In this document: piece after piece, positions 37,666 through 62,685 of the stretch | Layout of the letters: each line of letters starts with the position of its first letter | Numbering within the stretch: position 1 is the first letter of the stretch | Assembly: GCA_028715175.1 (NCBI GenBank) | Contig: JAQUSJ010000001.1 | Span: forward strand, 7,760 to 71,759 | Direction of reading: 5' to 3' | DNA from: Candidatus Daviesbacteria bacterium | Lineage (GTDB): Bacteria > Patescibacteriota > Microgenomatia > Daviesbacterales > UBA10151 | Length of the DNA stretch: 64,000 nt | Made by a program: the position numbers and the translations under genes | Notes under the pieces: model-generated | Databases searched by the model: none | What the model was told of the DNA's origin: nothing | The model's input: the letters and a program-made list of their open reading frames with translations, nothing else

Positions 37666-37745
37666 GTAGTCGTCAGCTATCAGTCTTCAGCTTTCAGACT
37701 TTTTTGAATCTGTCTGACGACTGACGTCTGATAACTGATAGCTAT
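37666..37745. repeat. dispersed imperfect-palindrome repeat element (about 80 bp), copy A
   Basis: agtcgtcagctatcagtcttcagctttcagac-ttttttgaatct-gtctgacgactgacgtctgataactgatagct; right arm is about 97 percent identical to the 59027-59105 copy. Confidence 0.5.
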
Positions 37746-39529
37746 TTCTGTTCAATATTAAACAGCGGTCCGACAATTTGAATATTGGCAGGCGCTCTCA
37801 GGTTAAAGAAGTTCTTAAAATCTGTCGCATTGATGCTTTGCGTGCCTCCATCACCTGATACACTAACTTGAGTGGAACGTCCGCTGCCGGTATCCCATCC
37901 TACGCTGACCGAGGAAATCGAATTAAACGACTTAATACCCCTATTTTGTAACTCCTGCCGAACTCTGCCGGCATCCCAAGTGTCTGTACCGTCTGGATTA
38001 GATTTGTCCGTTTGCGACAAATGAGTCTGAGTAGAAGAATCTGCTTTAGCAAGGAGCAGAACATTAACAATGTCAGCCAACTCATCTGACTTTAACCAGG
38101 CTGTTTTATTATAACCGGCTCTTGAGCCCCAATCACAGTAAAACCACGGGCTGCCTTTATCATAGGCGTTATTTTGTAAATCGGAAAAATTGCCAACCGG
38201 GCTGCTTGTATCAATAGCGTTTTTTGTCCAACTGGTATTATTCCAACCGATCGAACCTGAGGAAAAAACATAACCTCCGTGGGTAGAAGAAAACCAGGCT
38301 TTGGCCGGTGAGCCGCCGTTTGTCAGAACAATACCGGAAGTAGCAGCAACTGCAGCTTGCCAATTACCGTCATTTGTTTCTTTTTTAACAACCTGGCATT
38401 GCTGGGAAGGACAAATGGGGCCGGATCCATTGTTTGTATAAGCAAGCGCATAAGACCTGGCAGCAATCGCTTGGGCTTTCAAGGCTTCAAAAGGCCATCC
38501 TGCCGGCATTTCATATAAGTGCTTAAGATATTCTTCGATATTATAATTTTCATCAAAAGATTGACCGTATTCGTTTCTGCCGGAAACATGGATATTAATA
38601 CCGGTTGAGTAACCTGTTGTATAGTCGGCATTGAAATAGGCAGACAAAATTGTCTGCGCGCTCTGTCCGGCTTCTGCCCGACCTTTGGCGCCGTATTGGT
38701 TTAACCCAACCCGGTTTGGCACACCATAAGTAAAAGCTGCAAAACGGGGAGAAAACCCGGGGTCAATACCGCGATCGTCAACACAACCTCCCTGCATAGT
38801 ATAAGCACTGCGGGGGATATTCAAACTGGCCAGTTTGGCGGCAATTAATTCCTGCTGTCTGGCTGATAAAGAAGCGATTTGTTTACCCAGATCTGCCTGA
38901 TAAGCTTTGGCTTTTTTAATTTCGCCTCCTAAAAATTTAGCGTTTTTGTCAACGTCTGCTTGAATCAAAGCTAATCTGGCTTTATCTTTTTCCAGTTTTT
39001 CTTTTTCAGTCAGGAGACTTACAACTTCAGCCGTAATAGAACTAATGATCTGACGGTCTTCTTTGGTAACAGACTGGCGGTATGAGAGCTCTCTGAATAA
39101 ATCCCCTGCTTGAATAGATGAAAGAATAACCAGCAGAGGATCTGTCAGATATGAACGGATGTAGTAAGCTTTTATTCTTTGCTCCAAAAGGGCTTGCTGC
39201 AGAGCTAATTTATCTTCCCTTGTATCCAGATCTTTTTGTTTTTGGGCAATTCCTGCCACCAAATTATCAATAGTAGCTTGGATTTGGGCCAGTTGCCGCT
39301 GCAACGATTCAAGTTGACCTTCCAAGGGCTTGGTAGCATTGACAGATAGCTCCCGGGCGTGATTTAGAGAATCAATCTGTTTTTGCAGGTCTTCTATCTC
39401 ATCAGCAAAGACAGCTGGTAGTAAGTAGTAAGTAGTAAGTAGTAAGGATAAGACAGCCAAAATGGCTACCAAAAATTTCTTGGCAGATAACATGTTTCTA
39501 ATTTTACCATCCTGGCTACAAACTACCAA
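37742..39529 (-). CDS. SpoIID/LytB-domain protein with N-terminal coiled coil (peptidoglycan remodelling)
   Basis: LKHLYEMPAGWPFEALKAQAIAARSYALAY is the SpoIID/LytB signature; long N-terminal coiled coil; signal anchor. Confidence 0.7.
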   Translation of the reverse strand: MVVCSQDGKIRNMLSAKKFLVAILAVLSLLLTTYYLLPAVFADEIEDLQKQIDSLNHARELSVNATKPLEGQLESLQRQLAQIQATIDNLVAGIAQKQKDLDTREDKLALQQALLEQRIKAYYIRSYLTDPLLVILSSIQAGDLFRELSYRQSVTKEDRQIISSITAEVVSLLTEKEKLEKDKARLALIQADVDKNAKFLGGEIKKAKAYQADLGKQIASLSARQQELIAAKLASLNIPRSAYTMQGGCVDDRGIDPGFSPRFAAFTYGVPNRVGLNQYGAKGRAEAGQSAQTILSAYFNADYTTGYSTGINIHVSGRNEYGQSFDENYNIEEYLKHLYEMPAGWPFEALKAQAIAARSYALAYTNNGSGPICPSQQCQVVKKETNDGNWQAAVAATSGIVLTNGGSPAKAWFSSTHGGYVFSSGSIGWNNTSWTKNAIDTSSPVGNFSDLQNNAYDKGSPWFYCDWGSRAGYNKTAWLKSDELADIVNVLLLAKADSSTQTHLSQTDKSNPDGTDTWDAGRVRQELQNRGIKSFNSISSVSVGWDTGSGRSTQVSVSGDGGTQSINATDFKNFFNLRAPANIQIVGPLFNIEQK

Positions 39530-39566: not shown

Positions 39567-40673
39567 ATGTCCAAAGTTTTTGCAAATACTCTTTTTGTCT
39601 TAATTTTATTTTTCCTTCTCTTTTTTATTGGTTTACCTGAAACAGTGTGGGCAGGCGCAATCTATTGTACTCCACAAAATGTAGAGGTTGAAACAAACAA
39701 TGATTTTAATACTAAAGTAACCATAAGCACACAAGGCACTGCTATTAGAGATGGCGATAAACTTGCAATGGATATTTTTAATAACAAAGAGAGGGTTAAA
39801 CAATCAGAAGAGGTTACAGTAGAAAATCAAACTGTAGTTTTTAACTTAGGAAAATTAATTCCCGGAACATATTCTTATAATTTATTTCGAGTCGAAACAC
39901 CTCGTTCGCAAACATTATGTCTTGGTCGACAAGATGGAGCTATCTTTAGTGTCGATGAAAAAGGCCAGGGAGGAGAAATAACTGCAAGCAATAATATTGA
40001 ATTCATACCTAGCTCTCCCACCCCAAGAGACATTATTTTTGTTCGTGTAAAAAATCTACCAGAGGATACGGCATATTTGGTAGCCTTTTCGCGCGGCAAA
40101 GAACAAATTAGCCAAACCAGACCTAGCCGATGTTTTATTTCAGATAACCAAGAATTTGCTTTTTATATCGAACCTCTTGAAGCAGGTTACTGGAATGTAG
40201 TCGTCTCTAAAAAAGCCGGACAACCAAATGACGATCAATGCCAGTTCGCTACCGGATCTCCATTAGCTAGTGGAACAATTAGAATTTCTGAAACTGATAT
40301 TGTTATTCCCACTAAACCACCTCAAAAGGCCTCAGCAAAAGGAGATCCTTGTGATGATAAAGAAAGAGGGCCGGCATTTAAGACTGCCATTGGCTGTATT
40401 CATACCAACCCAACAGAACTTATTAAAGATATCCTCACCTTTGTTATTGGTATCTCCGGAGGACTAGCATTTTTAATGATGCTTTTGGGGGCATTTCAGA
40501 TGTTAACCTCTGCTGGAAATCCTGAAACTTTGAATGCAGGTAAAGATAGATTAACCAGTGCAATCATTGGACTTTTGTTTATTGTTTTTGCAATACTACT
40601 ACTACAAATTATTGGAGTTGGTATACTAAGCATACCAGGATTTGGCAAAGGTTTACCAAATAAATTTATATGA
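39567..40673 (+). CDS. secreted protein with C-terminal VirB2/TrbC-like 2-TM pilin-like module
   Basis: C-terminus GAFQMLTSAGNPETLNAGKDRLTSAIIGLLFIVFA is homologous to the five downstream small paralogs. Confidence 0.45.
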   Translation: MSKVFANTLFVLILFFLLFFIGLPETVWAGAIYCTPQNVEVETNNDFNTKVTISTQGTAIRDGDKLAMDIFNNKERVKQSEEVTVENQTVVFNLGKLIPGTYSYNLFRVETPRSQTLCLGRQDGAIFSVDEKGQGGEITASNNIEFIPSSPTPRDIIFVRVKNLPEDTAYLVAFSRGKEQISQTRPSRCFISDNQEFAFYIEPLEAGYWNVVVSKKAGQPNDDQCQFATGSPLASGTIRISETDIVIPTKPPQKASAKGDPCDDKERGPAFKTAIGCIHTNPTELIKDILTFVIGISGGLAFLMMLLGAFQMLTSAGNPETLNAGKDRLTSAIIGLLFIVFAILLLQIIGVGILSIPGFGKGLPNKFI

Positions 40674-40993
40674 ATAAGTTGGCATTAACATTACCCGGAA
40701 CCGGAAATATTATAGACAGCCCTGTTCAAGACAGGTTTCCCGATCTTGGGAGTGTTCTTTCAGGTCTTCTAAATATTACCTTCTATATTGCCGTATTCAT
40801 AACTTTCTACTTTTTCATTTGGGGAGCTTTTGCTTATATTGTGGCTCAAGGCAAAAAAGAAGATTTAGCCAAAGCCAGAAATAGAATTACCTGGTCACTA
40901 ATTGGGCTAATAATAATATTTCTGTCGTATTTTATAGCCAGATTTGTTGCCGAAATTCTCAAGACTAACATCAAAGGAGGGCTACCGTTCTGA
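40670..40993 (+). CDS. VirB2/TrbC-like 2-TM pilin-like protein (paralog 2)
   Basis: WGAFAYIVAQGKKEDLAKARNRITWSLIGL core between two TM helices; ATGA start/stop overlap with the upstream gene. Confidence 0.45.
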   Translation: MNKLALTLPGTGNIIDSPVQDRFPDLGSVLSGLLNITFYIAVFITFYFFIWGAFAYIVAQGKKEDLAKARNRITWSLIGLIIIFLSYFIARFVAEILKTNIKGGLPF

Positions 40994-41061
40994 AAAAATT
41001 TCCGATTCTACTTGCCCGGGTTAACATTGATGAAAAATTTGGCTTTGGAGGAATCACTTCA

Positions 41062-41310
41062 TTGGGGAAAGCAACCAGTGATTTGGTACCCCCTATATTT
41101 TCTATTGCAACAGCACTGGTAGTTATGTATTTCCTGTGGGGGGCTTTAAAATTTTTAATGTCCGGAGCAAACAAAGAAGAAACAGCCGAGGCAAGACAAA
41201 TGATTACCCATGCCATAATAGGGTTTATAATATTAATATTCGCATTTTTTATTTTGCAGTTCTTATTGAACGGTTTATTCAATATAAAGGATTTTCAAAT
41301 AATCAAATGA
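41062..41310 (+). CDS. VirB2/TrbC-like 2-TM pilin-like protein (paralog 3)
   Basis: WGALKFLMSGANKEETAEARQMITHAIIGF core; TTG start. Confidence 0.45.
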   Translation: MGKATSDLVPPIFSIATALVVMYFLWGALKFLMSGANKEETAEARQMITHAIIGFIILIFAFFILQFLLNGLFNIKDFQIIK

Positions 41311-41762
41311 AAATTTTATCTTTACTCATAATATTTTTTACATTTTTGCTTTTAACAAATAACGTTTATGCTCTTGACTGTTCTGGAGCAGATAAAGATA
41401 GAGTTGAGTGTAGATTCGGCACGATTACTCCTCCTTCACCCATAGCGGGTTTTATTGGTGGTGACCAAACAGGCACGGCAGGAATCAGTAAATTTTTATC
41501 AAATGGTGTGGCCCTCATTTACTCTATTGCGGTGGTAATTTTAGTTTTTATGCTCCTTTGGGGATCATTTGAATGGATAATCTCCGAAGGAGATAAAGAA
41601 AAAATCGCTGCCGCCCAAAAAAGAATCCTTAATGCCATTATTGGCATAATTCTTTTTGCCGTTGCTTTTGCCGTTATAAAACTTTTGGGCCAATTTACCG
41701 GTTTTGAATTTTTTGTAGGACAAAATCCACCATCTCTCTTGCCATATGAAAGAACTATATAA
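41307..41762 (+). CDS. VirB2/TrbC-like 2-TM pilin-like protein (paralog 4) with signal peptide
   Basis: WGSFEWIISEGDKEKIAAAQKRILNAIIGI core; ATGA overlap with the upstream gene (start taken at MKILSLL). Confidence 0.45.
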   Translation: MKILSLLIIFFTFLLLTNNVYALDCSGADKDRVECRFGTITPPSPIAGFIGGDQTGTAGISKFLSNGVALIYSIAVVILVFMLLWGSFEWIISEGDKEKIAAAQKRILNAIIGIILFAVAFAVIKLLGQFTGFEFFVGQNPPSLLPYERTI

Positions 41763-41808
41763 CCGCCGCTTGACAAATAAATTTTTGTGTGACTAAAATA
41801 AATTGTAG

Positions 41809-42192
41809 ATGAAAAAATTATTAGCTTTGCCCTCTGCTATTACTGCTTTATCAATACCTGTACTAACATTTGCTGCAGACGAAAAGATAAATATCAGTCC
41901 TCCCCCGTACGGCTATAAAAGCCTTGGCGGCTTTGTTACTAACCTAATCACTATTGCTTTTAGCGTTGCTATCCTGACAGTTTTGGTTATGCTTATCTGG
42001 GGAGCATTTGAATGGATTGTATCCGGAGGTGACAAAGAAGCTGTAGGTAAGGCCAGAAACAGAATTCTCAATGCTCTCATAGGTTTAGCTGTTTTGGCAA
42101 TAGCCTTTGCTCTGGCAACTGTTGGCGCTCAAATTTTAGGTTTCCCAGATATCACAAGCGGCCTCCCTATCCCGACACCGCCTCCACAATAA
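41809..42192 (+). CDS. VirB2/TrbC-like 2-TM pilin-like protein (paralog 5) with signal peptide
   Basis: WGAFEWIVSGGDKEAVGKARNRILNALIGL core. Confidence 0.45.
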   Translation: MKKLLALPSAITALSIPVLTFAADEKINISPPPYGYKSLGGFVTNLITIAFSVAILTVLVMLIWGAFEWIVSGGDKEAVGKARNRILNALIGLAVLAIAFALATVGAQILGFPDITSGLPIPTPPPQ

Positions 42193-42222
42193 ACTTCGTA
42201 AGATTGATCTGCAACGATATTC

Positions 42223-42576
42223 GTGGTAAGTTTAAAGTATATGGGCCCAGACGCTGCAGGTTTAACAGAAATTGAAAGAGTTATCGGTAATGTTATTTCC
42301 GTTATTGTAGGTCTTGGACTTATTGCCATGCTGGTGATGTTAATTTGGTCTGGATTTAAGTTCCTTTTTTCCGGCGGAGACCCCAAAGCTGTGGAGGTTG
42401 CCCGTCTGACATTTGCCTGGGCAATTTTAGGAATTATTTTTATGGCTATTGCCTGGTTAATTTTGCAGCTTATTGCAAGCTTTACCGGATTACCAGTAAC
42501 AGTATTTAATATAAAAAGTCTATGCGGTGACCCGCAAGCAAATTTTCCGTTTTGCAGCCCATCACCTGCCCCTTAA
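42223..42576 (+). CDS. VirB2/TrbC-like 2-TM pilin-like protein (paralog 6)
   Basis: WSGFKFLFSGGDPKAVEVARLTFAWAILGI core. Confidence 0.45.
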   Translation: MVSLKYMGPDAAGLTEIERVIGNVISVIVGLGLIAMLVMLIWSGFKFLFSGGDPKAVEVARLTFAWAILGIIFMAIAWLILQLIASFTGLPVTVFNIKSLCGDPQANFPFCSPSPAP

Positions 42577-42615
42577 AACTTGCAAAACAGGGATGATTTG
42601 TTTTACTGTTAAAGT

Positions 42616-44406
42616 ATGACTGCCTGGAAGTTAGTTGTTAGTTGTTCGTTATTAGTTATTAGTTTATTTTTAGCACCTCTCTCTGCACTGGCTGTATCTT
42701 CTCTCCCTAGCTCAAGCACCTCTGCAACTACAACCTACAACCTACAACCTACAACCTCTTTACCTCCTACCATTCCCCCTACCTCTCCTCTTTATACTGA
42801 TCTTTTGGTCAATAATATGTTCCATACTTTCAGCTGTCTGGCTGTGGGACAATCTGTAATTGGCCAACCATGCTTAACTTATCAGATTACCAAAAACGCC
42901 CAGGGGGCAATCCAAAGCGTGCCTGTTCTTTCTTCGGTAAATTTATCCGGAGGAACTTTAGGCGCTGTTACTTCTGTAATTGGGGCTTTATACATGAATC
43001 CGCCTGTTCGAACTGCTGATTATCTAGCCTCTGTAGGAGAGGGTTTGGGAATAGTTAAACAGGCTCATGCTCAGGGAGTAACCGGATCCGGGGCCAATGT
43101 GCTAAAACCCATTATCAGCTTATGGCAAGTGTCAAGAAATATTTCATATGTCATCATGATCATTATTTTTGTGATCATAGGCTTGATGATTATGTTTAGA
43201 AATAGAATAAATCCACAAACCGTCATTACCGCCCAAACTGCATTACCCGGATTAGTGATTGGTTTAATCTTAATTACTTTCTCTTACTTTTTGGCAGGAC
43301 TGATTTCTGACATGGCCTTTATAGGAACAAACATCGTCGGCTATTACTTTTCTGCTGCCCAAAATTCGCCGTCTGGTTCAACTATACATTGTCCCGATTC
43401 GTCCAGCCTGGTGGATTGCACAGAAAAGGCAAATGTTTTAAGTATCTTCAGCCCGCTGACAGGAATTATTGACAAAAATAATGCTGCTACTATGTTAAGC
43501 AATGTATGGAGTTCGCTGAGCGTAGAAGCCCAACGTTTACTAACAATGCTGGCAATGTTTATAACAGCCCAAACAACCTTACAAAGCACAGAATTTTTAA
43601 AGATGATTCCTAAATTTGGAGAAGCTGTTCAAGCGCTTCTTGTTGGCATTACAGTAGGTGCTACCCTAACAAATCCTACTGCTCTTATTGGACTTGCTCT
43701 AGCCTTTATAGCAACCGCTATATTACTATATTCCATGTTTAAACTATTGCTACGTCTTATAAATAACTATATAACCATTATCTTTTTAACCATCACTGCC
43801 CCTTTCCAATTTTTAGCAGCATCTTTGCCCGGCAGACAGGGAATCGCTACTGGTTGGATTTTAAATATGTTAGCCAATATTTTGGCATTTCCGGCAGTCC
43901 TGGCTGTATTCTATTTTGTGGCTTTTCTTTTGGGACCAAATGTTGAAGCTGTAAAAAAATTACCATTTCAAGTTTCTGATAAAACTGCGGTAACCGGCAT
44001 CTCGGCTTTTCCTCTGCTCGGAGGCTTAGATCTTAACTTTATCAATCTTCTCTTAGCTTTTGGAGCTTTGGTGGCGCTACCTTCTATTCCAGATATTATT
44101 GGTAAAACAGTTGGTAGAGCTTCTCAAGCTGAACAACTGATTGGTCAGGGGATTGGGGCTGGAATTGCCCAAGGTAGAGGCTATGCCGGCCAATTCCAGC
44201 AAGGAGTAGGAGCAGCCAGTAGCCAATTTGCTAGAGCCAGAGGTTTGTTCAATACTCCTGGATATAAAATGCAGTTAGTCCCTGGGACTACGGATCAATA
44301 CCAAATCGTAGAAACATATGAAGCAGGAAGAGGCGCTACTTTTGGAACTCTAAGCAGAAGAGGAATTACCAAGCCACCAAAATTAGAACCAGGTGTCGAA
44401 GAGTAA
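42616..44406 (+). CDS. polytopic membrane protein, VirB6/TrbL-like candidate
   Basis: 596 aa with signal peptide, Ser/Thr/Pro-rich N-terminal region and at least 6 TM helices; positioned after the pilin array as in T4SS loci. Confidence 0.4.
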   Translation: MTAWKLVVSCSLLVISLFLAPLSALAVSSLPSSSTSATTTYNLQPTTSLPPTIPPTSPLYTDLLVNNMFHTFSCLAVGQSVIGQPCLTYQITKNAQGAIQSVPVLSSVNLSGGTLGAVTSVIGALYMNPPVRTADYLASVGEGLGIVKQAHAQGVTGSGANVLKPIISLWQVSRNISYVIMIIIFVIIGLMIMFRNRINPQTVITAQTALPGLVIGLILITFSYFLAGLISDMAFIGTNIVGYYFSAAQNSPSGSTIHCPDSSSLVDCTEKANVLSIFSPLTGIIDKNNAATMLSNVWSSLSVEAQRLLTMLAMFITAQTTLQSTEFLKMIPKFGEAVQALLVGITVGATLTNPTALIGLALAFIATAILLYSMFKLLLRLINNYITIIFLTITAPFQFLAASLPGRQGIATGWILNMLANILAFPAVLAVFYFVAFLLGPNVEAVKKLPFQVSDKTAVTGISAFPLLGGLDLNFINLLLAFGALVALPSIPDIIGKTVGRASQAEQLIGQGIGAGIAQGRGYAGQFQQGVGAASSQFARARGLFNTPGYKMQLVPGTTDQYQIVETYEAGRGATFGTLSRRGITKPPKLEPGVEE

Positions 44407-44433
44407 GAAGACACAAAATAAAGCTCCGGTTTA

Positions 44434-47400
44434 TTAAAGAGCCATCTTATCAAATAACCAACCAGCCCAATCGCGGCCATCATACTTTCTAACCCATTGA
44501 CCATTTTCAGCTACAAACCAGTAATAAGGCTTCCTAAGGAATGAGTAGACTTCTGCTTCAGCCGGATATGCCTGCGCTCCGCCTCCGGGCCCCTTATCCA
44601 GCAACCAATCTACGTAAGCGTTCCAAAACATTCTTGCAATATGCCTGGAAGTCCCGGTATTCTTTTCCTTCTCCAGGGCTATAGCCGGATTAAACCTACC
44701 ATTGGGTAAAAAGACATCTGTTTTTCTTAAATCTAAAGCTCCACCTGCATTTCTCTGATCCGAATACATTGTCCTAACTTTTCTTAATGTATCCCATACT
44801 CTACCAAAATTTTCCAGTAGTATATGAAATACTTCCACTTCTCCCTCAGGCTTCTGAAGAGCTTCAACTAGTTTCTCTCTGATCTTTAACACATCTTCAG
44901 AATTATTGGTTGGCTTCATTAATAAACCTTCATGATGATCCCCTGTCTTAGGATCAGTACCACCAATCAAAGCAAACCATAATATAGTACTGCTATCCAT
45001 CAGATTAATAAATTTAGTGATAGCAAATTGACTGGCTATTCTTTGGTTTGTTAATTCATGAATCTTATCATCCATCATTGAAACCGCTCCCATTACCCCA
45101 TGACGCCCTAAATTACCAGCCATGGTATCTGCGTGCATAGGAGCTACAGAGAGTGCTGCCTTAAGTCTTCTAGCCCATCTGTCAGGCATTTTGGCAGTCA
45201 AAGCTTCAATTTGCAAAGAAAATCTAAAATCACCCCCAAGATCTTCAGTATAATAACCAGTACCCATATGTTCCTTATTACCATCATTAGGCAAAGATCG
45301 CTCCTTGAAAACATTTCTTACCCCAACCCAACCTAAAAGCGACTCTTCAACCGCAGCATCAAAAACAATCCCTTCCAAAGTCATTTGTTCCCCAGCAAAC
45401 TCTTTGACCCGGCACAAAGTGGGATCCAACGTCAGAAGTAAACCAGCAAAAATATCAGCATCTTCTGGCCGTAACTTTCCATCCCTGATTTGTCTGGCTT
45501 GGTCAATTACATAATCAGGCAACAAAGTATGCGTATTGTTGCTTTGATAAGCCCAATAAGTGTGAGCTGTATGCAGGGCTAACCAACTGTCTGCGGCAGT
45601 CGGGACATCCAAATCAACTTCTTCAACAAAAACAAATGTTCCGTCACCCCGTTCTGTTAAAATATATTTAGGATTGTCTTCAAGACCATAATGCAGGATA
45701 AGGTTACCAAGATCTATAAGTTTACGATCCTTTCCTCCGGGTTTATCATAAATAATGAGCTTACCGCTTGTTGCATCAAAATCGCTCTCGCCTAAACCAA
45801 CAGGTTTACCACTTTTATCGTAACCAAAGATAGGCTGACTGTTTTCATCAAAAGCAATAATAGGTAGCCCATTTTGGCTGTAGCCGAAAACATGCGGCCT
45901 TTTTAACTTCATCTGGCTAAGAGCAATTGGCTGAAGTTCAATCATACCGGACTTTAATTCACCATTCTCATCAAAATAATCTAAGTAATTAGCTGCATAA
46001 TCAGCATCAGAAAATTTTGCCGCAAATCCTTTTTCATAAATGGCATCTACCGCCCTTTCAAGTGCTTTCTGTACCATGGCTTCTCTGTATCTAGCTCTAA
46101 AATTAGGGTACCTATACTGATCATTTTCATCCTTACCCTCTACTCTTTCCTTAAACCCTTCTGTTTGCCAAATAGGTGAGTCGTCTCTATATTTCATCCG
46201 TATCCAATTTACAACAGCCATACCGGCTTTTTGAGCCAGATGGGCTGGGATATGATCAAATGTAAGATTTTCTCTGTCCGCAGGATTCAGGCTGTTATAT
46301 AGAGCTTGTTCTGTAGGAGGAAAAGAATCCAGTCGCCTACCTTTAGCTATCTCATCCAAAATCCATCCTTTATGCTGATTCTCGGTAAAACCTTTTCTTC
46401 TCTGCGCAGGCGACCATTGGCTGATATCAGGATCTGAAGCTTTTTGCTCCTTATGATTGTCCTGCCGGAATTTCAAATACTCCCGGACATATTGATTTTT
46501 ACCAACGAAATAAACTGCTCCACCTCTGATAGTTGTTTCGTGAGTTACGCCCTGCATTTGCATAGCTACATCAAAGCTAGTTTCTGAATCGGCATAATAT
46601 TTATCGTAAAACCTCTTATCTTGTCTTTTAATCCGTTTTAACTTCACTAATTTATCAATCAATTTTTCTTTTCTCCCTAAAACTACCGTCCCTGTCCTAA
46701 CTTCCTGCCTAAGTTCATCCATTAGGGTTTGGATTCTGCCTAACTTAACAGAATCCCGTAATTTTCTGGGGAAATTCTCGGGGAGTTTATCAATATCCAA
46801 ACCTTTGTTGCGAACATATTCCTGATAGTTATTTCTGTGAGCATCGCTATTATCAAACCCATCAAACAGGGCCTTCAAAGCCTCGGCAGATTGATGAATA
46901 CCTATCCGCTCCTGATTAGTCTTCGGGTGTACTCTTTGCGCTAAATAAAATTCCCTGTCATCGTCTTCCGCAAAGCTGTCTAAATCATCATCATTCTCTT
47001 TCAGATGTTTATCAAGCTGTTCCAAGCGTACTGCCCTTTTGTAACGCAATTCTGGATCCGAAACAAGATCTACATCACGCCAGTCATAGTCTTTTAAGAC
47101 AATGCCCATGCCTCTTTCTTTTTGTATTCCATAAATTATTGCCCTGATATACTCCTGCACCTGAGTGCGATCTCCAAATTGTCCTCTTGACCCTTGGGCG
47201 TTTAAGGCAAATTCAATCATAGCCAAATTATCAAAACAAAAGGTATGAAATCCAACTCCGCATTCCTCGCCTGAGCGCAGAGCTCTAACCCATCTTTGAG
47301 GTCCTTCGTGCATAGCCATTGCCATTGCACCCTGCTTAGCCCCTTCTTTGTTATAATGCTCGCTATTGTAAAAAGTGTGCCAGAGAAAAGCCCGTCCTTC

Positions 47401-48804
47401 AAATTCCTGCCTCAGCTCTTCCACAAATCCAGAGGTCATCTGATCTGACCCAAGATCCTTATTCGCTTGCTCTAAAGCCAACTCTTCTCCCCTTGCGACC
47501 AACACTTGTTTGAAATTCATTAGGTTTTGCATTAGCTCATTTGGGTCATACCCCAAAGCTTTATTTTTGAGCATTTGCAGAAAAGATTCTTTGGCAACAC
47601 GGAATTGGGCAGGAGTCCTAGCCTTTATCGTATAATAATTCGGATAACCGCCGTATGGCTCCCAATAAAGTTCTGTTATCTCGCCTTCCTCTTCTTCGCC
47701 TGGGATATGCCATTCGCCTTCTTGATAAGAACCTGGATCTTCACCATTAATTATTTTCCTAAGTTTTCCCCGCGTCCACAGAATATATGCTGTTTCAAGA
47801 TCCATTAACGGGGGATTAACTTCAGGATCTTTTGCTTTACCAAGCAGAGCATCCTCAATGGCCTGCCGGGCTTCTGGTTCCCTCTGCATCAATAAAGCCA
47901 AAGCCTGCTGCTTCGAATAGGTTCTATTCCTAAAACCTAAAAATATTGCATTATAAACCTCATCAACCCCCTTTAGTAACCCTTTTCTATGCGCTTCTTT
48001 AAAATATTTTAGTAAATCATTTTCTACTTGTTCTCTTTCGGGAATTGAAAGATGCAAATTTAGATACTTGGCAGTTAAAGATCCTAAATCCTCGCCTCTT
48101 TTTTCAATATCAGTAAAATCTTCAGGTTCAGGTTCATCTTGCTTTTTTGCCTTTTCAACACCTTTGGCAATTCTTTCTTCATAGGCCTTTTTTATTGCAT
48201 CATGCAGCGTCTGACCGGGCTCACGCTTGACCTTGTGCTCTTCCTCAGAATCAAAATGGTCCTGCAAATATCTGTCTTTTTGTTCGGTTTTCTCAACAAA
48301 AGCAGTTAATCTTCTACACAATTCATAGAGCTTTGGACCATTTTCAGCATCCCATCTAACTTCATAAGGCAACTCCGTTTCCATGTAGGTAATCTGTTCC
48401 ACTAGCCATCTGCCTCTTTCCGGACTAGTCTCCCACTCTGGCCCACTAGTTGGCTCTGGAACTATGGGTCCCTCATCTTCTGCACCTCCTGCTACTTCTA
48501 ACATCCTTGCCATCTCTTCACCTGTTCCTGGATCGATAAAAATCCTATAACCACCCTTTTGTTTTACCGAGTATTCTTCTACTCTTTTAGAGTCAAACGC
48601 CGGTGAGATATGCCAAGATCTTTGAAGATCTTGCTTACCAGATGGCTGAGGTAAAGTTTGTCCCTCAGCTTCGGCTGATCCTGCGCCCTGCAAGGGAACG
48701 GCACCTTCTATATTCTGTGGAGGCCCAGGAGGAATACTCGCTCCTGAGGAGCCTCCCCCCTCTACTGGTGTTCCTTCTGCCATATTTCTTTCTATATTTG
48801 CCAT
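44434..48804 (-). CDS. giant hypothetical protein (1456 aa), no recognised domains
   Basis: Uninterrupted 4.4 kb ORF on the opposite strand, embedded in the T4SS-like locus; Gly/Pro-rich N-terminus; acidic. Confidence 0.5.
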   Translation of the reverse strand: MANIERNMAEGTPVEGGGSSGASIPPGPPQNIEGAVPLQGAGSAEAEGQTLPQPSGKQDLQRSWHISPAFDSKRVEEYSVKQKGGYRIFIDPGTGEEMARMLEVAGGAEDEGPIVPEPTSGPEWETSPERGRWLVEQITYMETELPYEVRWDAENGPKLYELCRRLTAFVEKTEQKDRYLQDHFDSEEEHKVKREPGQTLHDAIKKAYEERIAKGVEKAKKQDEPEPEDFTDIEKRGEDLGSLTAKYLNLHLSIPEREQVENDLLKYFKEAHRKGLLKGVDEVYNAIFLGFRNRTYSKQQALALLMQREPEARQAIEDALLGKAKDPEVNPPLMDLETAYILWTRGKLRKIINGEDPGSYQEGEWHIPGEEEEGEITELYWEPYGGYPNYYTIKARTPAQFRVAKESFLQMLKNKALGYDPNELMQNLMNFKQVLVARGEELALEQANKDLGSDQMTSGFVEELRQEFEGRAFLWHTFYNSEHYNKEGAKQGAMAMAMHEGPQRWVRALRSGEECGVGFHTFCFDNLAMIEFALNAQGSRGQFGDRTQVQEYIRAIIYGIQKERGMGIVLKDYDWRDVDLVSDPELRYKRAVRLEQLDKHLKENDDDLDSFAEDDDREFYLAQRVHPKTNQERIGIHQSAEALKALFDGFDNSDAHRNNYQEYVRNKGLDIDKLPENFPRKLRDSVKLGRIQTLMDELRQEVRTGTVVLGRKEKLIDKLVKLKRIKRQDKRFYDKYYADSETSFDVAMQMQGVTHETTIRGGAVYFVGKNQYVREYLKFRQDNHKEQKASDPDISQWSPAQRRKGFTENQHKGWILDEIAKGRRLDSFPPTEQALYNSLNPADRENLTFDHIPAHLAQKAGMAVVNWIRMKYRDDSPIWQTEGFKERVEGKDENDQYRYPNFRARYREAMVQKALERAVDAIYEKGFAAKFSDADYAANYLDYFDENGELKSGMIELQPIALSQMKLKRPHVFGYSQNGLPIIAFDENSQPIFGYDKSGKPVGLGESDFDATSGKLIIYDKPGGKDRKLIDLGNLILHYGLEDNPKYILTERGDGTFVFVEEVDLDVPTAADSWLALHTAHTYWAYQSNNTHTLLPDYVIDQARQIRDGKLRPEDADIFAGLLLTLDPTLCRVKEFAGEQMTLEGIVFDAAVEESLLGWVGVRNVFKERSLPNDGNKEHMGTGYYTEDLGGDFRFSLQIEALTAKMPDRWARRLKAALSVAPMHADTMAGNLGRHGVMGAVSMMDDKIHELTNQRIASQFAITKFINLMDSSTILWFALIGGTDPKTGDHHEGLLMKPTNNSEDVLKIREKLVEALQKPEGEVEVFHILLENFGRVWDTLRKVRTMYSDQRNAGGALDLRKTDVFLPNGRFNPAIALEKEKNTGTSRHIARMFWNAYVDWLLDKGPGGGAQAYPAEAEVYSFLRKPYYWFVAENGQWVRKYDGRDWAGWLFDKMAL

Positions 48805-49019
48805 AAATTCCTCTCCTTGGGAAATCCATGGCCTATCTCAAGCATAGAACTTCCCAAATCTAACTGTCAAATCTTCTTTTTAGATTTGTTTATCGCTTAT
48901 CGTTAATCGGAAATTTAATATTCGATATACGAAGAGCGATTAGTGTTACAATAAACCATCAACCAATTCTGTGCTTGATTAAATTCTTACAAAATCCTGA
49001 CGGGGTTCAGTTCAAAGGT

Positions 49020-49466
49020 TCAGGACAATCTCTTATTTAAATCTATACTTCTTAGATATTGCAAAAAGTTTGCAGGAGCCATCACCATTATATTAAAATC
49101 CTCTTTTATTTTATCTATCTTAAAATGTTTGGTGTTATAAGAAATTAGATAATTCGCTTTAGCTTTTTTTGCTCCCGCTATAATGTGGGCATCGTCTTGA
49201 TCAACAATATATTCTGAATATTTTACTTTAATTTCTTTTAACTGTTGCTTTAGATATACCTTTTTGAAGCTTCTTTTAAGAAGATTTTTAAGCTCAGTCT
49301 GATCAAGCCCTAATCTATCAGCTACTTCTATTAATTCTTTCTGAGATACATTTGAAATATATAATTTAAGATTAGTTATGCTACTGAGCAAAAGATTAGC
49401 TGCCCCTGATGAAGAAATTAACGAAGAGATGACCACATCTGAGTCAATGAATACCTTTTTAAACAT
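49020..49466 (-). CDS. PIN-domain protein (VapC-like toxin)
   Basis: VFIDSDVVISSL...YLISYNTKHF; acidic residues in PIN positions. Confidence 0.65.
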   Translation of the reverse strand: MFKKVFIDSDVVISSLISSSGAANLLLSSITNLKLYISNVSQKELIEVADRLGLDQTELKNLLKRSFKKVYLKQQLKEIKVKYSEYIVDQDDAHIIAGAKKAKANYLISYNTKHFKIDKIKEDFNIMVMAPANFLQYLRSIDLNKRLS

Positions 49467-49730
49467 TTAACTACTGTTAATCTTAGACCTGATTTTTTTA
49501 ATCTCTGCTTGTATGGTGGGGAGTTGTTTCAGATCTTCCTTTTCAGCCAAATAAAGGTCATAATCCAGTCCGGTGAAAACAAAGGAGATGGAGCTTGCCG
49601 GGACACGATAAACCTTACCGATCTTTTTAGCTATTATCTCGCCCCTTTGAATTAAATCATAAATTGTATTTTTGCTCAGTTGTAGAATATTAGCTACTTG
49701 CTCGGGAGTATATGCTTTAGTGCTAATCAT
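49467..49730 (-). CDS. helix-turn-helix DNA-binding protein (excisionase/MerR-type; antitoxin-like partner of the PIN gene)
   Basis: YTPEQVANILQLSKNTIYDLIQRGEI HTH_17-like; stop abuts the PIN start. Confidence 0.6.
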   Translation of the reverse strand: MISTKAYTPEQVANILQLSKNTIYDLIQRGEIIAKKIGKVYRVPASSISFVFTGLDYDLYLAEKEDLKQLPTIQAEIKKIRSKINSS

Positions 49731-49787
49731 GATTATTTTATACCAAACATTACTAAATTTGTCAATAGGTAATTAAAACCTACAATA

Positions 49788-50696
49788 CTATCCGCATCTT
49801 TTAACTGTCCTACAGCTAGGACAGCTCTGGCCGGCCCTGACAATACAATTTATTGCTTCACCACAAACAGGACAATTCCTACAAAAATCAGGATCTTTAG
49901 TATTTACCCCATCACCCACTACTAAAGAATTCTCTGAAAATACCTGAAAAGCAGTCTTAGGGGGGCAGCTACCAGAGTATGACCCCAACACTTGCTTAAT
50001 AGCCATTTGCGCTTCATCTGTAGAATATAGCCCTGGAATAGAGAAAAACTCTTTTTGGACCATTGTAGCCTGTCTAAGAACCTCTTCTTTCAGTCTTCTA
50101 TCTTCTCCAATTCTGACCATTTCCCATACAGCAGGCGCATCAATTAACTCTTCTAAGGCATGGATCCAAAAATTGCCATGGGTCTTTAAAATCAGCGGGG
50201 TTGCCCTGACCTGATCAAAATTGAAAAAATTTGGCTGGTTCTGGCTAAACTGCGCCAAACCACGGGCAAATTCCAGAGACTGATTCTCATCAAAATCAAA
50301 TAAAATAGCCCGGTTAAATAATCTTTTGAGACCATTCTTATACTCTATCTCGCTGACAATTATTTTTAAGACAGAATATGCTCCAAGATAGGGAGGGCTA
50401 ACCCAGACAATTACTCCCTCATTACGACTGACTGCCCACTCTTCCATAGCAACTACCGCTCTATATTCCAACTGACCCAGGTGACTAGTTTTATCTTCAA
50501 TTGTATCTTTGACCCTGCAATGAGCGGTAGGAGAAAATAACTCTCCGTTTGATCTAACTTCAAAATAATAAGGGTCAGGAACTCTGTGAGTTTCGAGGCT
50601 GTAAGAAGCTATCTCTTCAACAACTTGCTTTTCAGGTTTACCTTGCCAATTTTTGATAAAAGAAGTTATTTCTGGTCGTTCTAGTGATACTGACAT
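49788..50696 (-). CDS. hypothetical protein with C-terminal Cys-rich zinc ribbon
   Basis: CRNCPVCGEAINCIVRAGQSCPSCRTVKRCG at the C-terminus. Confidence 0.35.
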   Translation of the reverse strand: MSVSLERPEITSFIKNWQGKPEKQVVEEIASYSLETHRVPDPYYFEVRSNGELFSPTAHCRVKDTIEDKTSHLGQLEYRAVVAMEEWAVSRNEGVIVWVSPPYLGAYSVLKIIVSEIEYKNGLKRLFNRAILFDFDENQSLEFARGLAQFSQNQPNFFNFDQVRATPLILKTHGNFWIHALEELIDAPAVWEMVRIGEDRRLKEEVLRQATMVQKEFFSIPGLYSTDEAQMAIKQVLGSYSGSCPPKTAFQVFSENSLVVGDGVNTKDPDFCRNCPVCGEAINCIVRAGQSCPSCRTVKRCG

Positions 50697-50756
50697 ATTG
50701 CTCCTGCTCGGGATAGAATCTCGCCGTTAGGCGAAGTGGTCGGTCTCCTGACTTAA

Positions 50757-50838
50757 TCAGCTCTCAGCTTTCAGTCTTCAGCTATCAGACTAAAAATTCT
50801 TGTCTGACAACTGATGACCGACGACTGATGACTGAAAT
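50757..50838. repeat. dispersed imperfect-palindrome repeat element, divergent copy C
   Basis: tcagctctcagctttcagtcttcagctatcagac-taaaaattcttg-gtctgacaactgatgaccgacgactgatgactgaaatc. Confidence 0.45.
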
Positions 50839-51145
50839 CACAGTTGCGGCACAGTCCAGGATTCTCACCTGATTCCCTTTTTAAGAGCGAAGCTCGCAAG
50901 CTCCGCTTATTTCTTCTCCCGCCAGAGGCGGGATGAAATACCACAACGTTAGAATAACAACTCAAAACTCAAATGTCAAAACTCAAAACTAAAACTTAAA
51001 ATCTTAAAATTTTAAAACCTTTGAGATTTAAGATGCAGATTTGCGATTTGAGATCTAAGATTTGAGATTAATATGGATTGCCCCATAATGATCTGTTTTG
51101 TGACTCTTGCCATCATTTTTTTCACGATGTATATAGATAGTATCT

Positions 51146-52165
51146 ATGGAAGAAGTACATCCAATCCCGCAAAATGTGACAAGTTTCCAGTTCAAGCTGG
51201 TTGGGGATATGACCCTAAAGCAATTCGGCTATCTGGCTGCCGGCGCAGGTTTTGCTTATCTGGTTTTTGTCCTTTTCTCGCACGATTATCCAATCATAGC
51301 CTGGCCGATTGTTTTTTCTTCAACCATTTTAGGCATTGCTTTTGCTTTTGTGCCGATTGGATCACGGGCGCTGGACCACTGGTTAGCAGCATTTTTGAAA
51401 GCTGTTTATTCTCCTACTAAAAGAGCCTGGGCGAAAAACGGAAAAACTTACAAAGAAGACCCGTTGTTTGACAGCCGTCTGGTGATGTATCTTGCCGGTA
51501 CTCAAAATGCTCCTCCGGCCAAACCATCTGCTGCAACCATCACTCAAATTGCACGCCCCGCACCTTTACCAACACAAGAGAAGCTGCAAAAAACAGTAGA
51601 CCTGGCTCAAGAGGCACAACAACTGCAAATGAAGATCATCCAGTCGGAGCGGACTTTATCGCAAATTAAGGAACAGGCAACGCAACCCACACCTATACCC
51701 GTTGACTATAGCCAACAAGCCAGTAAGATCTTAACGGATTTAAAAAACCTGGTTAATCAAGCTTCCGAAGTAAAACAGCAAATTAAATCTATCCAGGAAC
51801 CAACAGTTCAACCTCAGGTTCCTATTTCCGAACCTGTCTTCAGAGAAAAAGTCAAAGTAATAGTGCCTGTGAAACCCAAACAAGCACAGATTGCGCTAAC
51901 TACATTTCCAAATGTCATAAACGGTATTGTCAAAGACAGGAACAATAATTATCTGGAAGGCGTAGTGGCAGTTATCTACGACAAAGAGGGCCTGCCTGTC
52001 CGGGCCCTAAAAACAAATAAACTCGGTCAATTTACCGGTTCAACACCGCTGCCTAATAAAACTTATACTTTGGAGCTTGAAAAAGACAATTATACTTTTG
52101 ATGTATTGCAGATTGAATTAACCGGAGAAGTTTTACCGCCTTTAGTGATTACAGCAAAATCATGA
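51146..52165 (+). CDS. PrgI-family (VirB3-like) membrane protein with extended C-terminal region
   Basis: N-terminus IPQNVTSFQFKLVGDMTLKQFGYLAAGAGFAYLVF with two TM helices is typical of the PrgI family preceding VirB4 in Gram-positive T4SS. Confidence 0.5.
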   Translation: MEEVHPIPQNVTSFQFKLVGDMTLKQFGYLAAGAGFAYLVFVLFSHDYPIIAWPIVFSSTILGIAFAFVPIGSRALDHWLAAFLKAVYSPTKRAWAKNGKTYKEDPLFDSRLVMYLAGTQNAPPAKPSAATITQIARPAPLPTQEKLQKTVDLAQEAQQLQMKIIQSERTLSQIKEQATQPTPIPVDYSQQASKILTDLKNLVNQASEVKQQIKSIQEPTVQPQVPISEPVFREKVKVIVPVKPKQAQIALTTFPNVINGIVKDRNNNYLEGVVAVIYDKEGLPVRALKTNKLGQFTGSTPLPNKTYTLELEKDNYTFDVLQIELTGEVLPPLVITAKS

Positions 52166-52932
52166 ATACAACACAGGAACATTTATCTATTTCAGATATT
52201 CGGGACGATATTCTTTTGCTGAAAGACGGGGGCGGGGCGCTTGTTCTGCAAGTCAGCGCTGTTAATTTTGGCTTACTTTCAGACAGGGAACAGGTGGCTA
52301 TCATTTCCGCATTCGCCCAAATGCTTAATTCCTTATCATTCAGCATCCAAATTGTCATCCATTCGGAAAGGCTCAACATCAGCTCTTATCTGAAAATATT
52401 GGATGACGCCAAAAAAGCCCAAAACAACCCGCTGCTTTCACAAATGATTACGGGATATAGACAATTTATCCAAACTACAATCAAAGAAAATGAGGTATTG
52501 GATAAAAGGTTTTATATTGTCATTCCGCTTTTCGCGCTAGAGCTGGGGCTAACTCCATCCAGAGAAAGTTTGGAGGGAAAAATTAAAACAATACTCATAC
52601 CAAGACGGGATCAAATTGTCAGACAGCTAGGCAGAGTCAATCTGAAAGCGATGCATCTGACCAAACAAAAATTGATTGAAGTTTTTTATTATATCTATAA
52701 TGGTCAAGTTGAGGAAAAACCGCCGGGACAAATCGTCAATCCGCAAGAATTAGCAGTTAAATTAAAACAACCCGTTCGACTCGCTGACGCTCGCTCAGGG
52801 CCTTCGGCCGCACAACCAACTTTTAATCCCGCAGCACAACAGCCAACATCACCAATCCCACCTGTGACAGAACCAATAACCACTCAAGGCACAAAAACAC
52901 ATCCTTTTGTAGTGGAGGAGTTAGGAGAATGA
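52162..52932 (+). CDS. VirB4/TcpF/PrgJ-type ATPase, N-terminal domain (separately encoded)
   Basis: LSISDIRDDILLLKDGGGALVLQVSAVNFGLLSDREQVAIISAFAQMLNSLSFSIQIVIHSERL matches the N-terminus of Gram-positive VirB4 homologs; ATGA overlap with the next ORF. Confidence 0.55.
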   Translation: MNTTQEHLSISDIRDDILLLKDGGGALVLQVSAVNFGLLSDREQVAIISAFAQMLNSLSFSIQIVIHSERLNISSYLKILDDAKKAQNNPLLSQMITGYRQFIQTTIKENEVLDKRFYIVIPLFALELGLTPSRESLEGKIKTILIPRRDQIVRQLGRVNLKAMHLTKQKLIEVFYYIYNGQVEEKPPGQIVNPQELAVKLKQPVRLADARSGPSAAQPTFNPAAQQPTSPIPPVTEPITTQGTKTHPFVVEELGE

Positions 52933-57919: not shown

Positions 57920-59023
57920 TCAATTTAATCTTACCGGCATTACTATATATTCCAATCCCTCTACTCCTATTGGTTTAATCAAAGCAGCAGACAAAGGCCC
58001 TGAAAATTCCATCAAAACTTGAGTTGAAGGAGAGTTTGAAATGGCATCCATTAAGAATTTAGTATTAAAGGCGATCGTAAGTTCGTCCCCCTCCACATCG
58101 CCCTCAATCTCATTTTCCTGACTGCCGACTTCTTTAGTGTGAGATTCCAATTTAAGAAAACCTTTCTTTGTGGTCAAAATAACTATATTGGCCTCGTTTT
58201 TGGCAAAAATCGCCGCCAGCTTGATCGCTTTCAAGAATTCCTCTTTTGTAACCGCAGCTCTGGCAATAATTTTTTGAGGAATAATCTTGCTCCAGGCAGG
58301 AAACTGACCTTCAATCAATCTTGATGAGACCTGGGTGGAGCCTAAACTAAACACGATCTGATTCTGATTCTCGCTGGTGGCAATACCTACTTCTTCCAGA
58401 TCTTGCTCCTCTGCCATCAACCTCAATACCTCTTCAAAAGTTTTTCTCGGTATTAAACTTTTAAATTGAACGTTTCCTTTGGGTAATTCCAGCCGGCGGT
58501 GAGCAAGCCTAAAACCGTCTGTTGCCACAAAATCCAATTTATTGGCAGAGATATCTGTTAAGATACCGGTTAAAACCGGCCTACCTTCATCAACAGCCGA
58601 AGCAAACAGAATCTGGGAAGAAGTTAAAAATGCTTCTTTAGGTAAACTGATGCCTGAGGAAGAAGATAATGGAATAGCCGGAAACTCCGCCGCAGCAATA
58701 CCATTAATTGTTGCTTTGAATTTGCCTGATTCTACAGTTAAAATTTCACCTTTTAGCTCTAAGCTGATTTTGTTTTGACCAAGACCGGAAACAAGTTCAA
58801 CCAGGGTTTTGGCAGGAACTGTAATGCTGCCCGGAATTTCCACCTCAACATTTAGATACTTGATCACTCCTATCTCCAGGTTGGTAGCAGCGATCTTGAG
58901 CTTTTGCCCTTCGGCTGATAATAAAATATTGTCCAGCACAGGAAGAGTTGATCTGATCCCTATTGATCTTGCAACCGATTGCAAAAAGGGTAAAAGGTCT
59001 TGTTGTAAAACTGATAATCTCAT
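57920..59023 (-). CDS. dnaN: DNA polymerase III beta sliding clamp
   Basis: 367 aa, MRLSVLQQDLLPFLQSVARSI start and three-domain clamp architecture; downstream of dnaA on the same strand. Confidence 0.9.
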   Translation of the reverse strand: MRLSVLQQDLLPFLQSVARSIGIRSTLPVLDNILLSAEGQKLKIAATNLEIGVIKYLNVEVEIPGSITVPAKTLVELVSGLGQNKISLELKGEILTVESGKFKATINGIAAAEFPAIPLSSSSGISLPKEAFLTSSQILFASAVDEGRPVLTGILTDISANKLDFVATDGFRLAHRRLELPKGNVQFKSLIPRKTFEEVLRLMAEEQDLEEVGIATSENQNQIVFSLGSTQVSSRLIEGQFPAWSKIIPQKIIARAAVTKEEFLKAIKLAAIFAKNEANIVILTTKKGFLKLESHTKEVGSQENEIEGDVEGDELTIAFNTKFLMDAISNSPSTQVLMEFSGPLSAALIKPIGVEGLEYIVMPVRLN

Positions 59024-59026
59024 AAT

Positions 59027-59105
59027 AGTCGTCGGCTTTCGGTCTTCAGCTATCAGACTTCAAAAATTTTGTCTGACGGCTGACGTCTGATAACTGATAG
59101 CTACT
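59027..59105. repeat. dispersed imperfect-palindrome repeat element, copy B (between dnaN start and upstream gene)
   Basis: agtcgtcggctttcggtcttcagctatcagac-ttcaaaaattttg-gtctgacggctgacgtctgataactgatagct. Confidence 0.5.
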
Positions 59106-61653: not shown

Positions 61654-61672
61654 TCGGTACTATTTTAATTAT

Positions 61673-62682: not shown

Positions 62683-62685
62683 TTT

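Follow-up and report, generated by a model that had tools for sequence, protein, structure and literature searches.

Patescibacteria account for a large share of bacterial diversity, and all of their cultivated members depend on host cells. Their type IV secretion systems (T4SS) often come with tandem VirB2-like pilin genes: in the passages of Quinonero-Coronel et al. (2025, PMC12102498) on which we draw throughout, 441 such arrays of 2-11 genes are reported from 383 Patescibacteria assemblies, with an enrichment in Microgenomatia and a within-array identity of 25% on average and 54% at most. An array is defined there as 2-11 pilin genes in tandem, or with one non-pilin gene between them, at most 20 coding sequences from virB4, and the T4SS layout is described as monoderm-type, relaxase-poor and origin-proximal, beside dnaA/dnaN. 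A six-gene pilin array is essential in Southlakia epibionticum (PMC10633639, PMC12857230), and the same array is featured in a 2025 review. Here, we analyse six consecutive pilin-like genes (g1 to g6, occupying array positions p1 to p6) in a 64-kb stretch of Daviesbacteria DNA, hereafter the window, and compare them with 63 loci from species-representative genomes, anchored on the family of the 596-aa protein encoded directly after the array.

The window array fits the published arrays in its tandem PF18895 genes near virB4, in its divergence and in its position beside dnaA/dnaN. VirB4 is encoded about seven genes after g6, so the locus qualifies as an array as defined in PMC12102498; it is a further example of this type and ordinary for Microgenomatia. 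The original prediction, made from the sequence of the window alone, had called six copies unusual, which holds for classical T4SS but not for this lineage, given the published 2-11-gene arrays. On the other hand, position-specific orthology, the fusion of p1 to an ectodomain and the promoter-like site before p5, all described below, are not reported in the passages searched of that article. We consider it fairly probable that the six genes encode a VirB2-like PF18895 pilin set of the chromosomal, monoderm-type T4SS of Daviesbacteria, derived from the mating-pair-formation FATA class (MPF-FATA), and that their products are specialised subunits of a heteromeric structure. The fixed order of six subunits, the adhesin-like fusion of p1 and the p5 promoter-like site are testable refinements of what has been published.

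Six consecutive plus-strand open reading frames (ORFs) span positions 39567-42576 and encode proteins of 368, 107, 82, 151, 127 and 117 aa (Table 1). This bears out the predicted run of six paralogs; the sizes expected for the last five, 82-152 aa, are also right except that the longest, g4, is 151 aa. All six genes match PF18895 (T4SS_pilin) above its gathering score of 26.6 bits (29.1-43.0 bits, E 1e-6 to 5e-11), as do 60 of the 60 ortholog modules from relatives on which the family scans were run. Moreover, a hidden Markov model (HMM) built from the six modules found exactly six strong copies, at 96-122 bits, in a six-frame scan of the 64-kb window. Hydropathy indicates two transmembrane (TM) segments in all six proteins and a signal-peptide-like N-terminus only in g1, g4 and g5. 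Each module consists of two TM helices joined via a short charged loop, which is net-basic. AlphaFold2 models of g1 and g5, both with a mean predicted local distance difference test (pLDDT) score of 80, contain a helical hairpin at residues 282-314/319-352 and 39-71/76-109, respectively, and this hairpin is the most confident part of both models (module pLDDT 84-98; g5 hairpin 96-98). Hydropathy and structure models thus agree with the T4SS pilin topology proposed for these genes. The secreted domain of about 270 aa said to be fused to the first gene is likewise found, as a signal-peptide-like N-terminus and immunoglobulin/fibronectin type III (Ig/FN3)-like domains before the pilin module, and the ATGA overlaps foreseen at 40670 and 41307 are present in the sequence (40670-40673 for g1/g2; 41307-41310 for g3/g4). 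The motif WGAFEWI(V/I)SGGDKE, expected between the two TM segments of every copy, fits literally only g4 and g5. Identity between the paralogs of the window is 20-40%, p4 and p5 being the closest pair (37% in the window and 43% on average across genomes), and the protein identical to g1 carries the NCBI label 'pilin'.

Two-TM hairpins are common, and our Pfam scans returned low-scoring matches to many TM families. One might therefore ask whether the six genes encode unrelated small membrane proteins (holins, bacteriocin immunity proteins, or pseudopilins of competence or type II secretion systems, T2SS) that resemble pilins by composition only. We regard this reading as effectively refuted: the six genes and all 60 orthologs fall into one family above its cut-off, their linkage to T4SS genes is conserved, and the N-termini are Sec-type or absent, with no class III (prepilin peptidase) signal. 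Furthermore, no holin, phage or defence family was matched; a PHROGs scan gave no holin-like match and only one 17-bit match of unknown function, and there is no phage context. The co-occurrence with VirB4-type genes that the original prediction had called for is observed in the window and in 9 of 12 related loci, in which VirB4 lies at most 10 kb downstream; the same 12 loci were used for the flank checks on p1 and the SpoIID-domain gene below.

The comparison with relatives favours a fixed set of six specialised subunits over a pool of variants. In an all-against-all comparison of 32 genomes, identity between genomes was 56-67% at the same array position and 19-43% at different positions, and in 178 of 192 cases a module's best match in another genome shared its position. 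Within-array identity across the 32 genomes averaged 28.1%, with a maximum of 53.9%. Where the upstream flank is complete, nearly all Daviesbacteria loci hold six pilin modules, the first of which is always C-terminal in an ORF of 250-560 aa, and position-specific HMMs recover the order p1-p2-p3-p4-p5-p6 in essentially every Daviesbacteria locus. Many of these loci also served to train the HMMs, so this order result is descriptive and the independent test is that of the all-against-all identities. The positions also differ in their traits. A signal peptide is a feature of p1, together with a long, Cys-rich ectodomain, and is never present in p2; the N-terminal extension of p4 contains Cys; and p6, which usually begins a few residues ahead of the first helix, has a tail with two Cys. 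In some orthologs of p3 and p6, a signal peptide and a Cys-rich extension come immediately before the module, which would place the N-terminus of the p3 and p6 modules outside the cell. No nucleotide-level repeats were found between the six genes. Compared with locus L031, the closest relative at 92% nucleotide identity, g5 has a dN/dS of 0.11 and g6 one of 0.24, comparable to 0.12 for PrgI and 0.20 for TrsD; both genes are under purifying selection. These comparisons show the six copies to be six old ortholog groups, each conserved separately and kept in a fixed order in nearly all Daviesbacteria loci, and they fit old, non-interchangeable subunits rather than a pool of antigenic variants.

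In more distant relatives, including metagenome-assembled genomes labelled Woesebacteria and Levyibacteriota, 4-11 copies occur, with a p1-like copy first and a p6-like copy last, and the surplus copies are all p4/p5-like. The copy-number comparison suggested at the outset thus gives two answers, a count of six fixed in nearly all Daviesbacteria loci and a variable one among distant relatives. Separately, 2.5-4 kb of non-pilin DNA interrupts the array between p3 and p4 in loci L009, L016 and L041, and in L016 a p6-like module is fused to a large ORF upstream of p1.

Arrays of diverged paralogs could also be read as sets of interchangeable variants, that is, as alternatives for the major subunit, employed singly or in free mixture, for evasion of immunity or of the host or for breadth of host range. 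Such use has been proposed for the VirB2 paralogs of Bartonella and Anaplasma, and the passages of PMC12102498 suggest it for Patescibacteria, where host-strain versatility is put forward for the pilin arrays. The strong divergence of the window paralogs and the variable copy number among the more distant Microgenomates lineages point in the same direction as this published speculation. However, one-to-one orthology in a fixed order, signatures of Cys pattern and signal-peptide occurrence specific to each ortholog group, purifying selection acting on g5 and g6, and the lack of DNA-level homology between copies that could drive recombination all speak against it, as do the ATGA overlaps of several genes, which imply co-expression, and the finding that all six genes are individually required in S. 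epibionticum (PMC10633639). We therefore consider variant use improbable, and the Daviesbacteria comparisons do not favour the host-strain versatility proposed in PMC12102498. The original prediction had left a choice between antigenic and functional variation. The fixed ortholog groups, the absence of DNA repeats and the dN/dS values of 0.11-0.24 contradict the former, whereas the data favour the latter, understood as a specialisation of subunits.

The closest experimental parallel is S. epibionticum ML1, a member of Saccharibacteria and the one species in which array essentiality has been shown. In its transposon sequencing (Tn-seq) data, the six PF18895 genes SEML1_0014-0019 each score GD/ES/ES, a growth defect followed by essentiality (Wang et al. 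2023, Table S1, PMC10633639), which speaks against redundancy of these copies; in this, the one species tested, epibiotic growth requires the T4SS together with its pilin array. Like the window, S. epibionticum has six tandem, divergent PF18895 genes and a chromosomal monoderm-type T4SS with PrgI, a TrsD-like protein and VirB4; some of its array genes overlap, and the last members show weak similarity to TrbC. The two loci differ in that the S. epibionticum pilins measure 103-185 aa and none has a large ectodomain, whereas p1 of the window has 368 aa with Ig/FN3-like domains. Likewise, the VirB6-like gene of S. epibionticum encodes 1088 aa and is divergent, while the window has an unrelated-looking 596-aa polytopic gene on the same strand as the array.

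Based on these findings, we propose a mechanism in which the pilins would insert into the membrane with their two termini on the outer side and the charged loop facing the cytoplasm. VirB4, together with the PrgI/VirB3-like, TrsD-like and polytopic 596-aa proteins, would extract them from the membrane, and the extracted pilins would stack into a pilus-like structure or a conduit that crosses the wall, which the CHAP and SpoIID hydrolases would open for it. This structure would be heteromeric, with p5, perhaps together with p4, as the bulk subunit and p2, p3 and p6 as low-copy specialised subunits for priming, base or termination. By carrying a hypervariable Ig/FN3-like ectodomain on a conserved pilin anchor, p1 would be the host-contact subunit, either at the tip or decorating the structure.

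Two observations point to p5. A sigma-70-like promoter-like site stands immediately before g5 (Table 1) and, counting as a match any site with at least 10 of 12 consensus positions, the p4-p5 interval holds one in 22 of 29 genomes, compared with 0/16, 1/28, 0/17 and 2/23 in the other four intervals. This suggests extra transcription from p5 onward, and p5 is proposed as the abundant subunit because this conserved site precedes it. Furthermore, p4/p5 is the only class that expands in copy number in relatives, which is a further reason why p5 is our candidate for the bulk role.

The case for p1 comes from its uneven conservation. Its C-terminal module is the best conserved of the six: it is 72-80% identical to the window copy in 11 of the 12 related loci, namely all those holding p1, and it aligns in 406 of 406 genome pairs, with a median identity of 72%. 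By contrast, tblastn found no match for the N-terminal 270 aa of the window p1 in the 12 loci, and the ectodomain is alignable over at least half its length in only 33 of the 406 pairs. Its length varies as well, p1 measuring 250-557 aa in relatives. The AlphaFold2 model of g1 contains two beta-sandwich domains, and Foldseek searches against the PDB returned tandem FN3/Ig and macroglobulin MG domains (E 2e-5 to 1e-4). Among the six pilins, hypervariability is thus confined to the p1 Ig/FN3-like ectodomain; over the locus as a whole, variability is concentrated in this ectodomain and in a downstream segment, described below, that may be a swapped cassette. According to the passages of PMC12102498, a PrgB-like adhesin is not found in Patescibacteria, and p1 is a plausible candidate for that role.

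The proposed scheme parallels, by analogy, the way in which type IV pili combine major and minor pilins and diderm T4SS divide labour between VirB2 and VirB5. Type IV pili and T2SS pseudopili, as well as VirB2 and VirB5, combine an abundant subunit, low-copy conserved paralogs in a fixed order and an adhesin-bearing member. For type IV pili and T2SS the likeness would be one of functional analogy only, as their fold and assembly machine are unrelated and the array has neither a prepilin peptidase signal nor a PilB-type ATPase.

The main competing explanation is that the hairpins are not pilus subunits at all and are integral parts of the translocon, either a short stalk spanning membrane or wall or VirB3-like anchors of the ATPase, that never form a filament. 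Monoderm T4SS are generally described as lacking pili (PMC12857230 and the passages of PMC12102498), the closest curated family outside the candidate phyla radiation (CPR) is that of Mbov_0395 from a Mycoplasma integrative and conjugative element (ICE), and small ICE proteins have also been read as VirB3-like (PMC12857230). Neither can a fold search separate a pilin hairpin from other hairpins; with the g5 model, the helical hairpin matches thousands of chains, so the search is uninformative. What turns us towards a VirB2 rather than a VirB3 topology is that signal peptides, disulfide-rich extensions on the N-terminal side and the p1 ectodomain would put the N-termini outside, that the loop is net-basic and that a separate PrgI/VirB3 homologue already lies beside TrsD and VirB4. 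Moreover, six specialised copies and an adhesin-like fusion are hard to explain if the proteins are purely membrane-embedded. All considered, we judge the translocon explanation unlikely, though it deserves more weight than variant use.

Several results nevertheless weigh against our reading of the array as a heteromeric pilin set. The gathering score of TrbC (PF04956, 27.9 bits) was never reached, the best match and the only one among the window copies being g6 at 20.5 bits (E 5.7e-4); the profile check suggested in the original prediction succeeded for PF18895 and failed for this second family. In relatives, TrbC was matched by 3 of the 60 modules at E<=0.01, which resembles the chance level seen with other TM families. 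Sequence profile searches of the PDB with 6 and with 60 modules returned no pilin, the best matches being a designed TM protein and cytochrome oxidase (E>=0.24). Our literature searches found no report of a filament of PF18895 proteins in any organism, and the only CPR filaments solved, those of another CPR species, are Pam pili, which are Ig-like and assembled by donor-strand exchange (bioRxiv 10.64898/2026.03.03.709456). In addition, the essentiality of single genes within an operon, as scored by Tn-seq, may reflect polar effects; a VirB6-like role of the 596-aa protein found no sequence support when PF04610, NCBIfam and PrgH were tested; and the major/minor and tip roles are drawn from a promoter-like motif, copy-number patterns and analogy.

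With regard to known pilins, the six proteins resemble VirB2 of Agrobacterium and TrbC of RP4 in being small, in pairing two hydrophobic helices around a short loop that is charged, in the Sec signal peptide that some members carry and in belonging to a VirB4 locus. A tblastn search with a VirB2 sequence recovered genuine virB2 genes. The canonical VirB2/TrbC systems have one pilin gene per locus and a diderm envelope, in contrast to the six genes and monoderm setting of the window. The best curated match outside the CPR is NF045849, the 'pilin-like conjugal transfer protein' of Mycoplasma ICEs (Mbov_0395/MMCAP2_0565). The six window genes score 19.0-30.3 bits over nearly the full 80-residue model, and 56 of the 60 modules match at E<=0.01 (best E 5.9e-9), in all cases below the curated cut-off of 40 bits, which suggests a related family and not membership. 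Going by the locus tags in the model names alone, the Mycoplasma ICE order, with the hairpin Mbov_0395, the polytopic Mbov_0396 and the VirB4 Mbov_0397, is apparently as in the window, but there the predicted pilin is single-copy, the host is wall-less and the function is conjugation. These similarities fit a descent of the pilins alongside the remaining MPF-FATA-type machinery; the passages of PMC12102498 raise a loan from diderm systems as the alternative. We also tried PrgF of pCF10, a 75-aa hairpin encoded before PrgH, as a Gram-positive counterpart and rejected it, the hhalign probability being 3%; Pfam places PrgF nearest Maff2.

A more specific version of our model would make the structure an obligately heteromeric six-subunit monoderm pilus, with p5 as the bulk subunit and p1 as a host-specificity adhesin. 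The 596-aa protein would be the missing VirB6 of Microgenomatia, equipped with a nucleating hairpin, and the whole module would stem from Mycoplasma-ICE-like monoderm conjugation and not from a diderm T4SS. Taken together, these claims are tentative, and we hold the full combination to be rather doubtful.

The remaining features of the locus are collected in Table 1.

Table 1. Pilin genes and other features of the window (coordinates in the 64-kb stretch; aa, amino acids)
Feature	Position	Strand	Description
Coiled-coil and SpoIID-domain protein	37742-39529	-	Peptidoglycan remodelling; PF08486 E 4.5e-16; divergent from p1
p1/g1	39567-40673	+	368 aa; signal peptide, two Ig/FN3-like beta-sandwich domains, Cys-rich linker, C-terminal PF18895 hairpin aa 281-349; 43 bits
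p2/g2	40670-40993	+	107 aa; no signal peptide; PF18895 35.2 bits; two TM segments; 4-bp ATGA overlap with g1
p3/g3	41062-41310	+	82 aa from TTG 41062; PF18895 39.1 bits
p4/g4	41307-41762	+	151 aa; signal peptide, Cys-containing N-terminal extension; PF18895 39.3 bits; ATGA overlap with g3
Sigma-70-like promoter-like site	41770-41799	+	TTGACA-18-TAAAAT; immediately 5' of g5; 11/12 consensus positions
p5/g5	41809-42192	+	127 aa; signal peptide; PF18895 29.1 bits; candidate major subunit
p6/g6	42223-42576	+	No signal peptide; two Cys in C-terminal tail; PF18895 40.1 bits
596-aa polytopic membrane protein	42616-44406	+	Begins 39 nt past g6; a candidate for a VirB6 analogue, going only by position and topology
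1456-aa ORF	44434-48804	-	No recognised domain
PIN-domain gene			Between the 1456-aa ORF and the PrgI gene
PrgI/VirB3-like	51146-52165	+	PF12666 E 3.5e-8
TrsD-like	52162-52932	+	Resembles the N-terminal part of VirB4; NF041427 E 2e-7, below cut-off
VirB4-type ATPase	52929-54698	+	PF19044 E 1.7e-25; CagE_TrbE_VirB E 4.5e-5
CHAP-domain cell-wall hydrolase	54714-56729	+	PrgK/VirB1-like position; PF05257 E 2.6e-12
Two Big_5 proteins			After the CHAP gene
dnaN	57920-59023		Origin-side marker
dnaA	59734-61101		Origin-side marker

The window is chromosomal, with the T4SS cluster directly beside the replication origin. It contains smpB, tmRNA, dnaG, an rpoD-like sigma factor and ftsJ, and the origin-proximal position of the cluster follows from dnaN, dnaA, rnpA and yidC, which lie within 57920-63153, and from a change in the sign of the GC skew near 60 kb. 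This layout matches that given for Patescibacteria in the passages of PMC12102498. The PrgI/VirB3, TrsD, VirB4 and CHAP genes lie 8.6-14 kb downstream of the array, and the order of the PrgI, VirB4 and CHAP genes is the same as PrgI-PrgJ(VirB4)-PrgK in pCF10. On the other side of the array, the SpoIID-domain neighbour of p1 is kept in 11 of the 12 related loci, at 40-67% identity. A weak VirD4-like ATPase is found 32 kb from the array.

The 596-aa protein is 45-79% identical across most Daviesbacteria loci and is always encoded directly after p6. VirB6 homologues are scarce in Microgenomatia according to the passages of PMC12102498, for which reason we treat this protein as a positional VirB6 candidate. 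Its family belongs to no Pfam or NCBIfam family: none of 20 members matched PF04610, and the NCBIfam scan gave only stray VlpA/VlpC N-terminal matches in 4 of the 20. Its classification as PrgH/VirB6-like by sequence was rejected, as hhalign against PrgH gave a probability of 0.06%. Residues 183-238 may form an embedded pilin-like hairpin, albeit a weakly supported one (hhalign against the pilin profile: probability 33%, E 4.6e-4; six-module HMM: 17 bits; Pfam TrbC: E 0.027), and a weak pilin-like match recurs in the orthologs of eight loci (L003, L007, L022-L024, L039, L043 and L045).

A sharp mosaic break runs through this protein. The window and L031 share 92% nucleotide identity over 41766-43350 and 94% over 48971-53973, and DNA similarity is absent from the roughly 5.5 kb between (43350-48800 in the window; compare 1715-7760 in L031). 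In its C-terminal half (~350 aa), the 596-aa protein is only 18-60% identical to its L031 counterpart at the amino acid level, except for one conserved TM block at 82%, and an unrelated 1284-aa ORF replaces the 1456-aa ORF in L031. The 1456-aa protein lacks a signal peptide, TM segments and Pfam domains, and among Daviesbacteria it varies or is missing. The mosaic segment may be a swapped cassette in which the membrane protein is paired with a partner or substrate in the cytoplasm.

Two start sites in the array call for correction. Since most p6 orthologs begin with M(G/N)P(D/P)PA-GL, g6 probably starts at ATG 42241, giving 111 aa, rather than at GTG 42223. In g3, the sole canonical start is TTG 41062, and the ortholog-conserved motif EKFGFG lies in the open frame upstream of it. 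An ATG at 41030 is one base out of the g3 frame, beside a run of five A at 41033-41037, and one extra A in this run would give MKKFGFGGITSLGK... for g3. The true start of g3 is probably upstream, at about 41026-41038, and the anomaly could be due to a non-canonical start or to a homopolymer error.

The pilin family itself is very large, as a search of a library of 1.84 billion proteins with the six-module profile matched, at E<=1e-3, 83,394 cluster representatives. Many of the top relatives carry 2-17 pilin modules per polypeptide, with signal-peptidase-like AYA|Q motifs between modules. Examples of such multi-module polypeptides in the representative library are P0361 (820 aa), P0363 (312 aa), P0368 (1775 aa) and P0380 (221 aa), the last of which resembles a p2-p3 fusion. 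They may be genuine polyproteins that are cleaved into individual pilins, or the product of gene-calling read-through across tandem genes.

Three further elements were noted in the window. A cobalamin riboswitch (50721-50916, minus strand; 51 bits against a gathering score of 31.5) lies between the array and the PrgI/TrsD/VirB4 genes and precedes a 302-aa ORF without a Pfam domain (49788-50696, minus strand). A group I intron match (23176-23373, minus strand; 65 bits against a gathering score of 50) is located between two small minus-strand ORFs. Finally, ARAGORN predicts a tRNA-Ile with the anticodon TAT at 4634-4705 on the minus strand, whereas most bacteria use a modified CAT anticodon for this tRNA.

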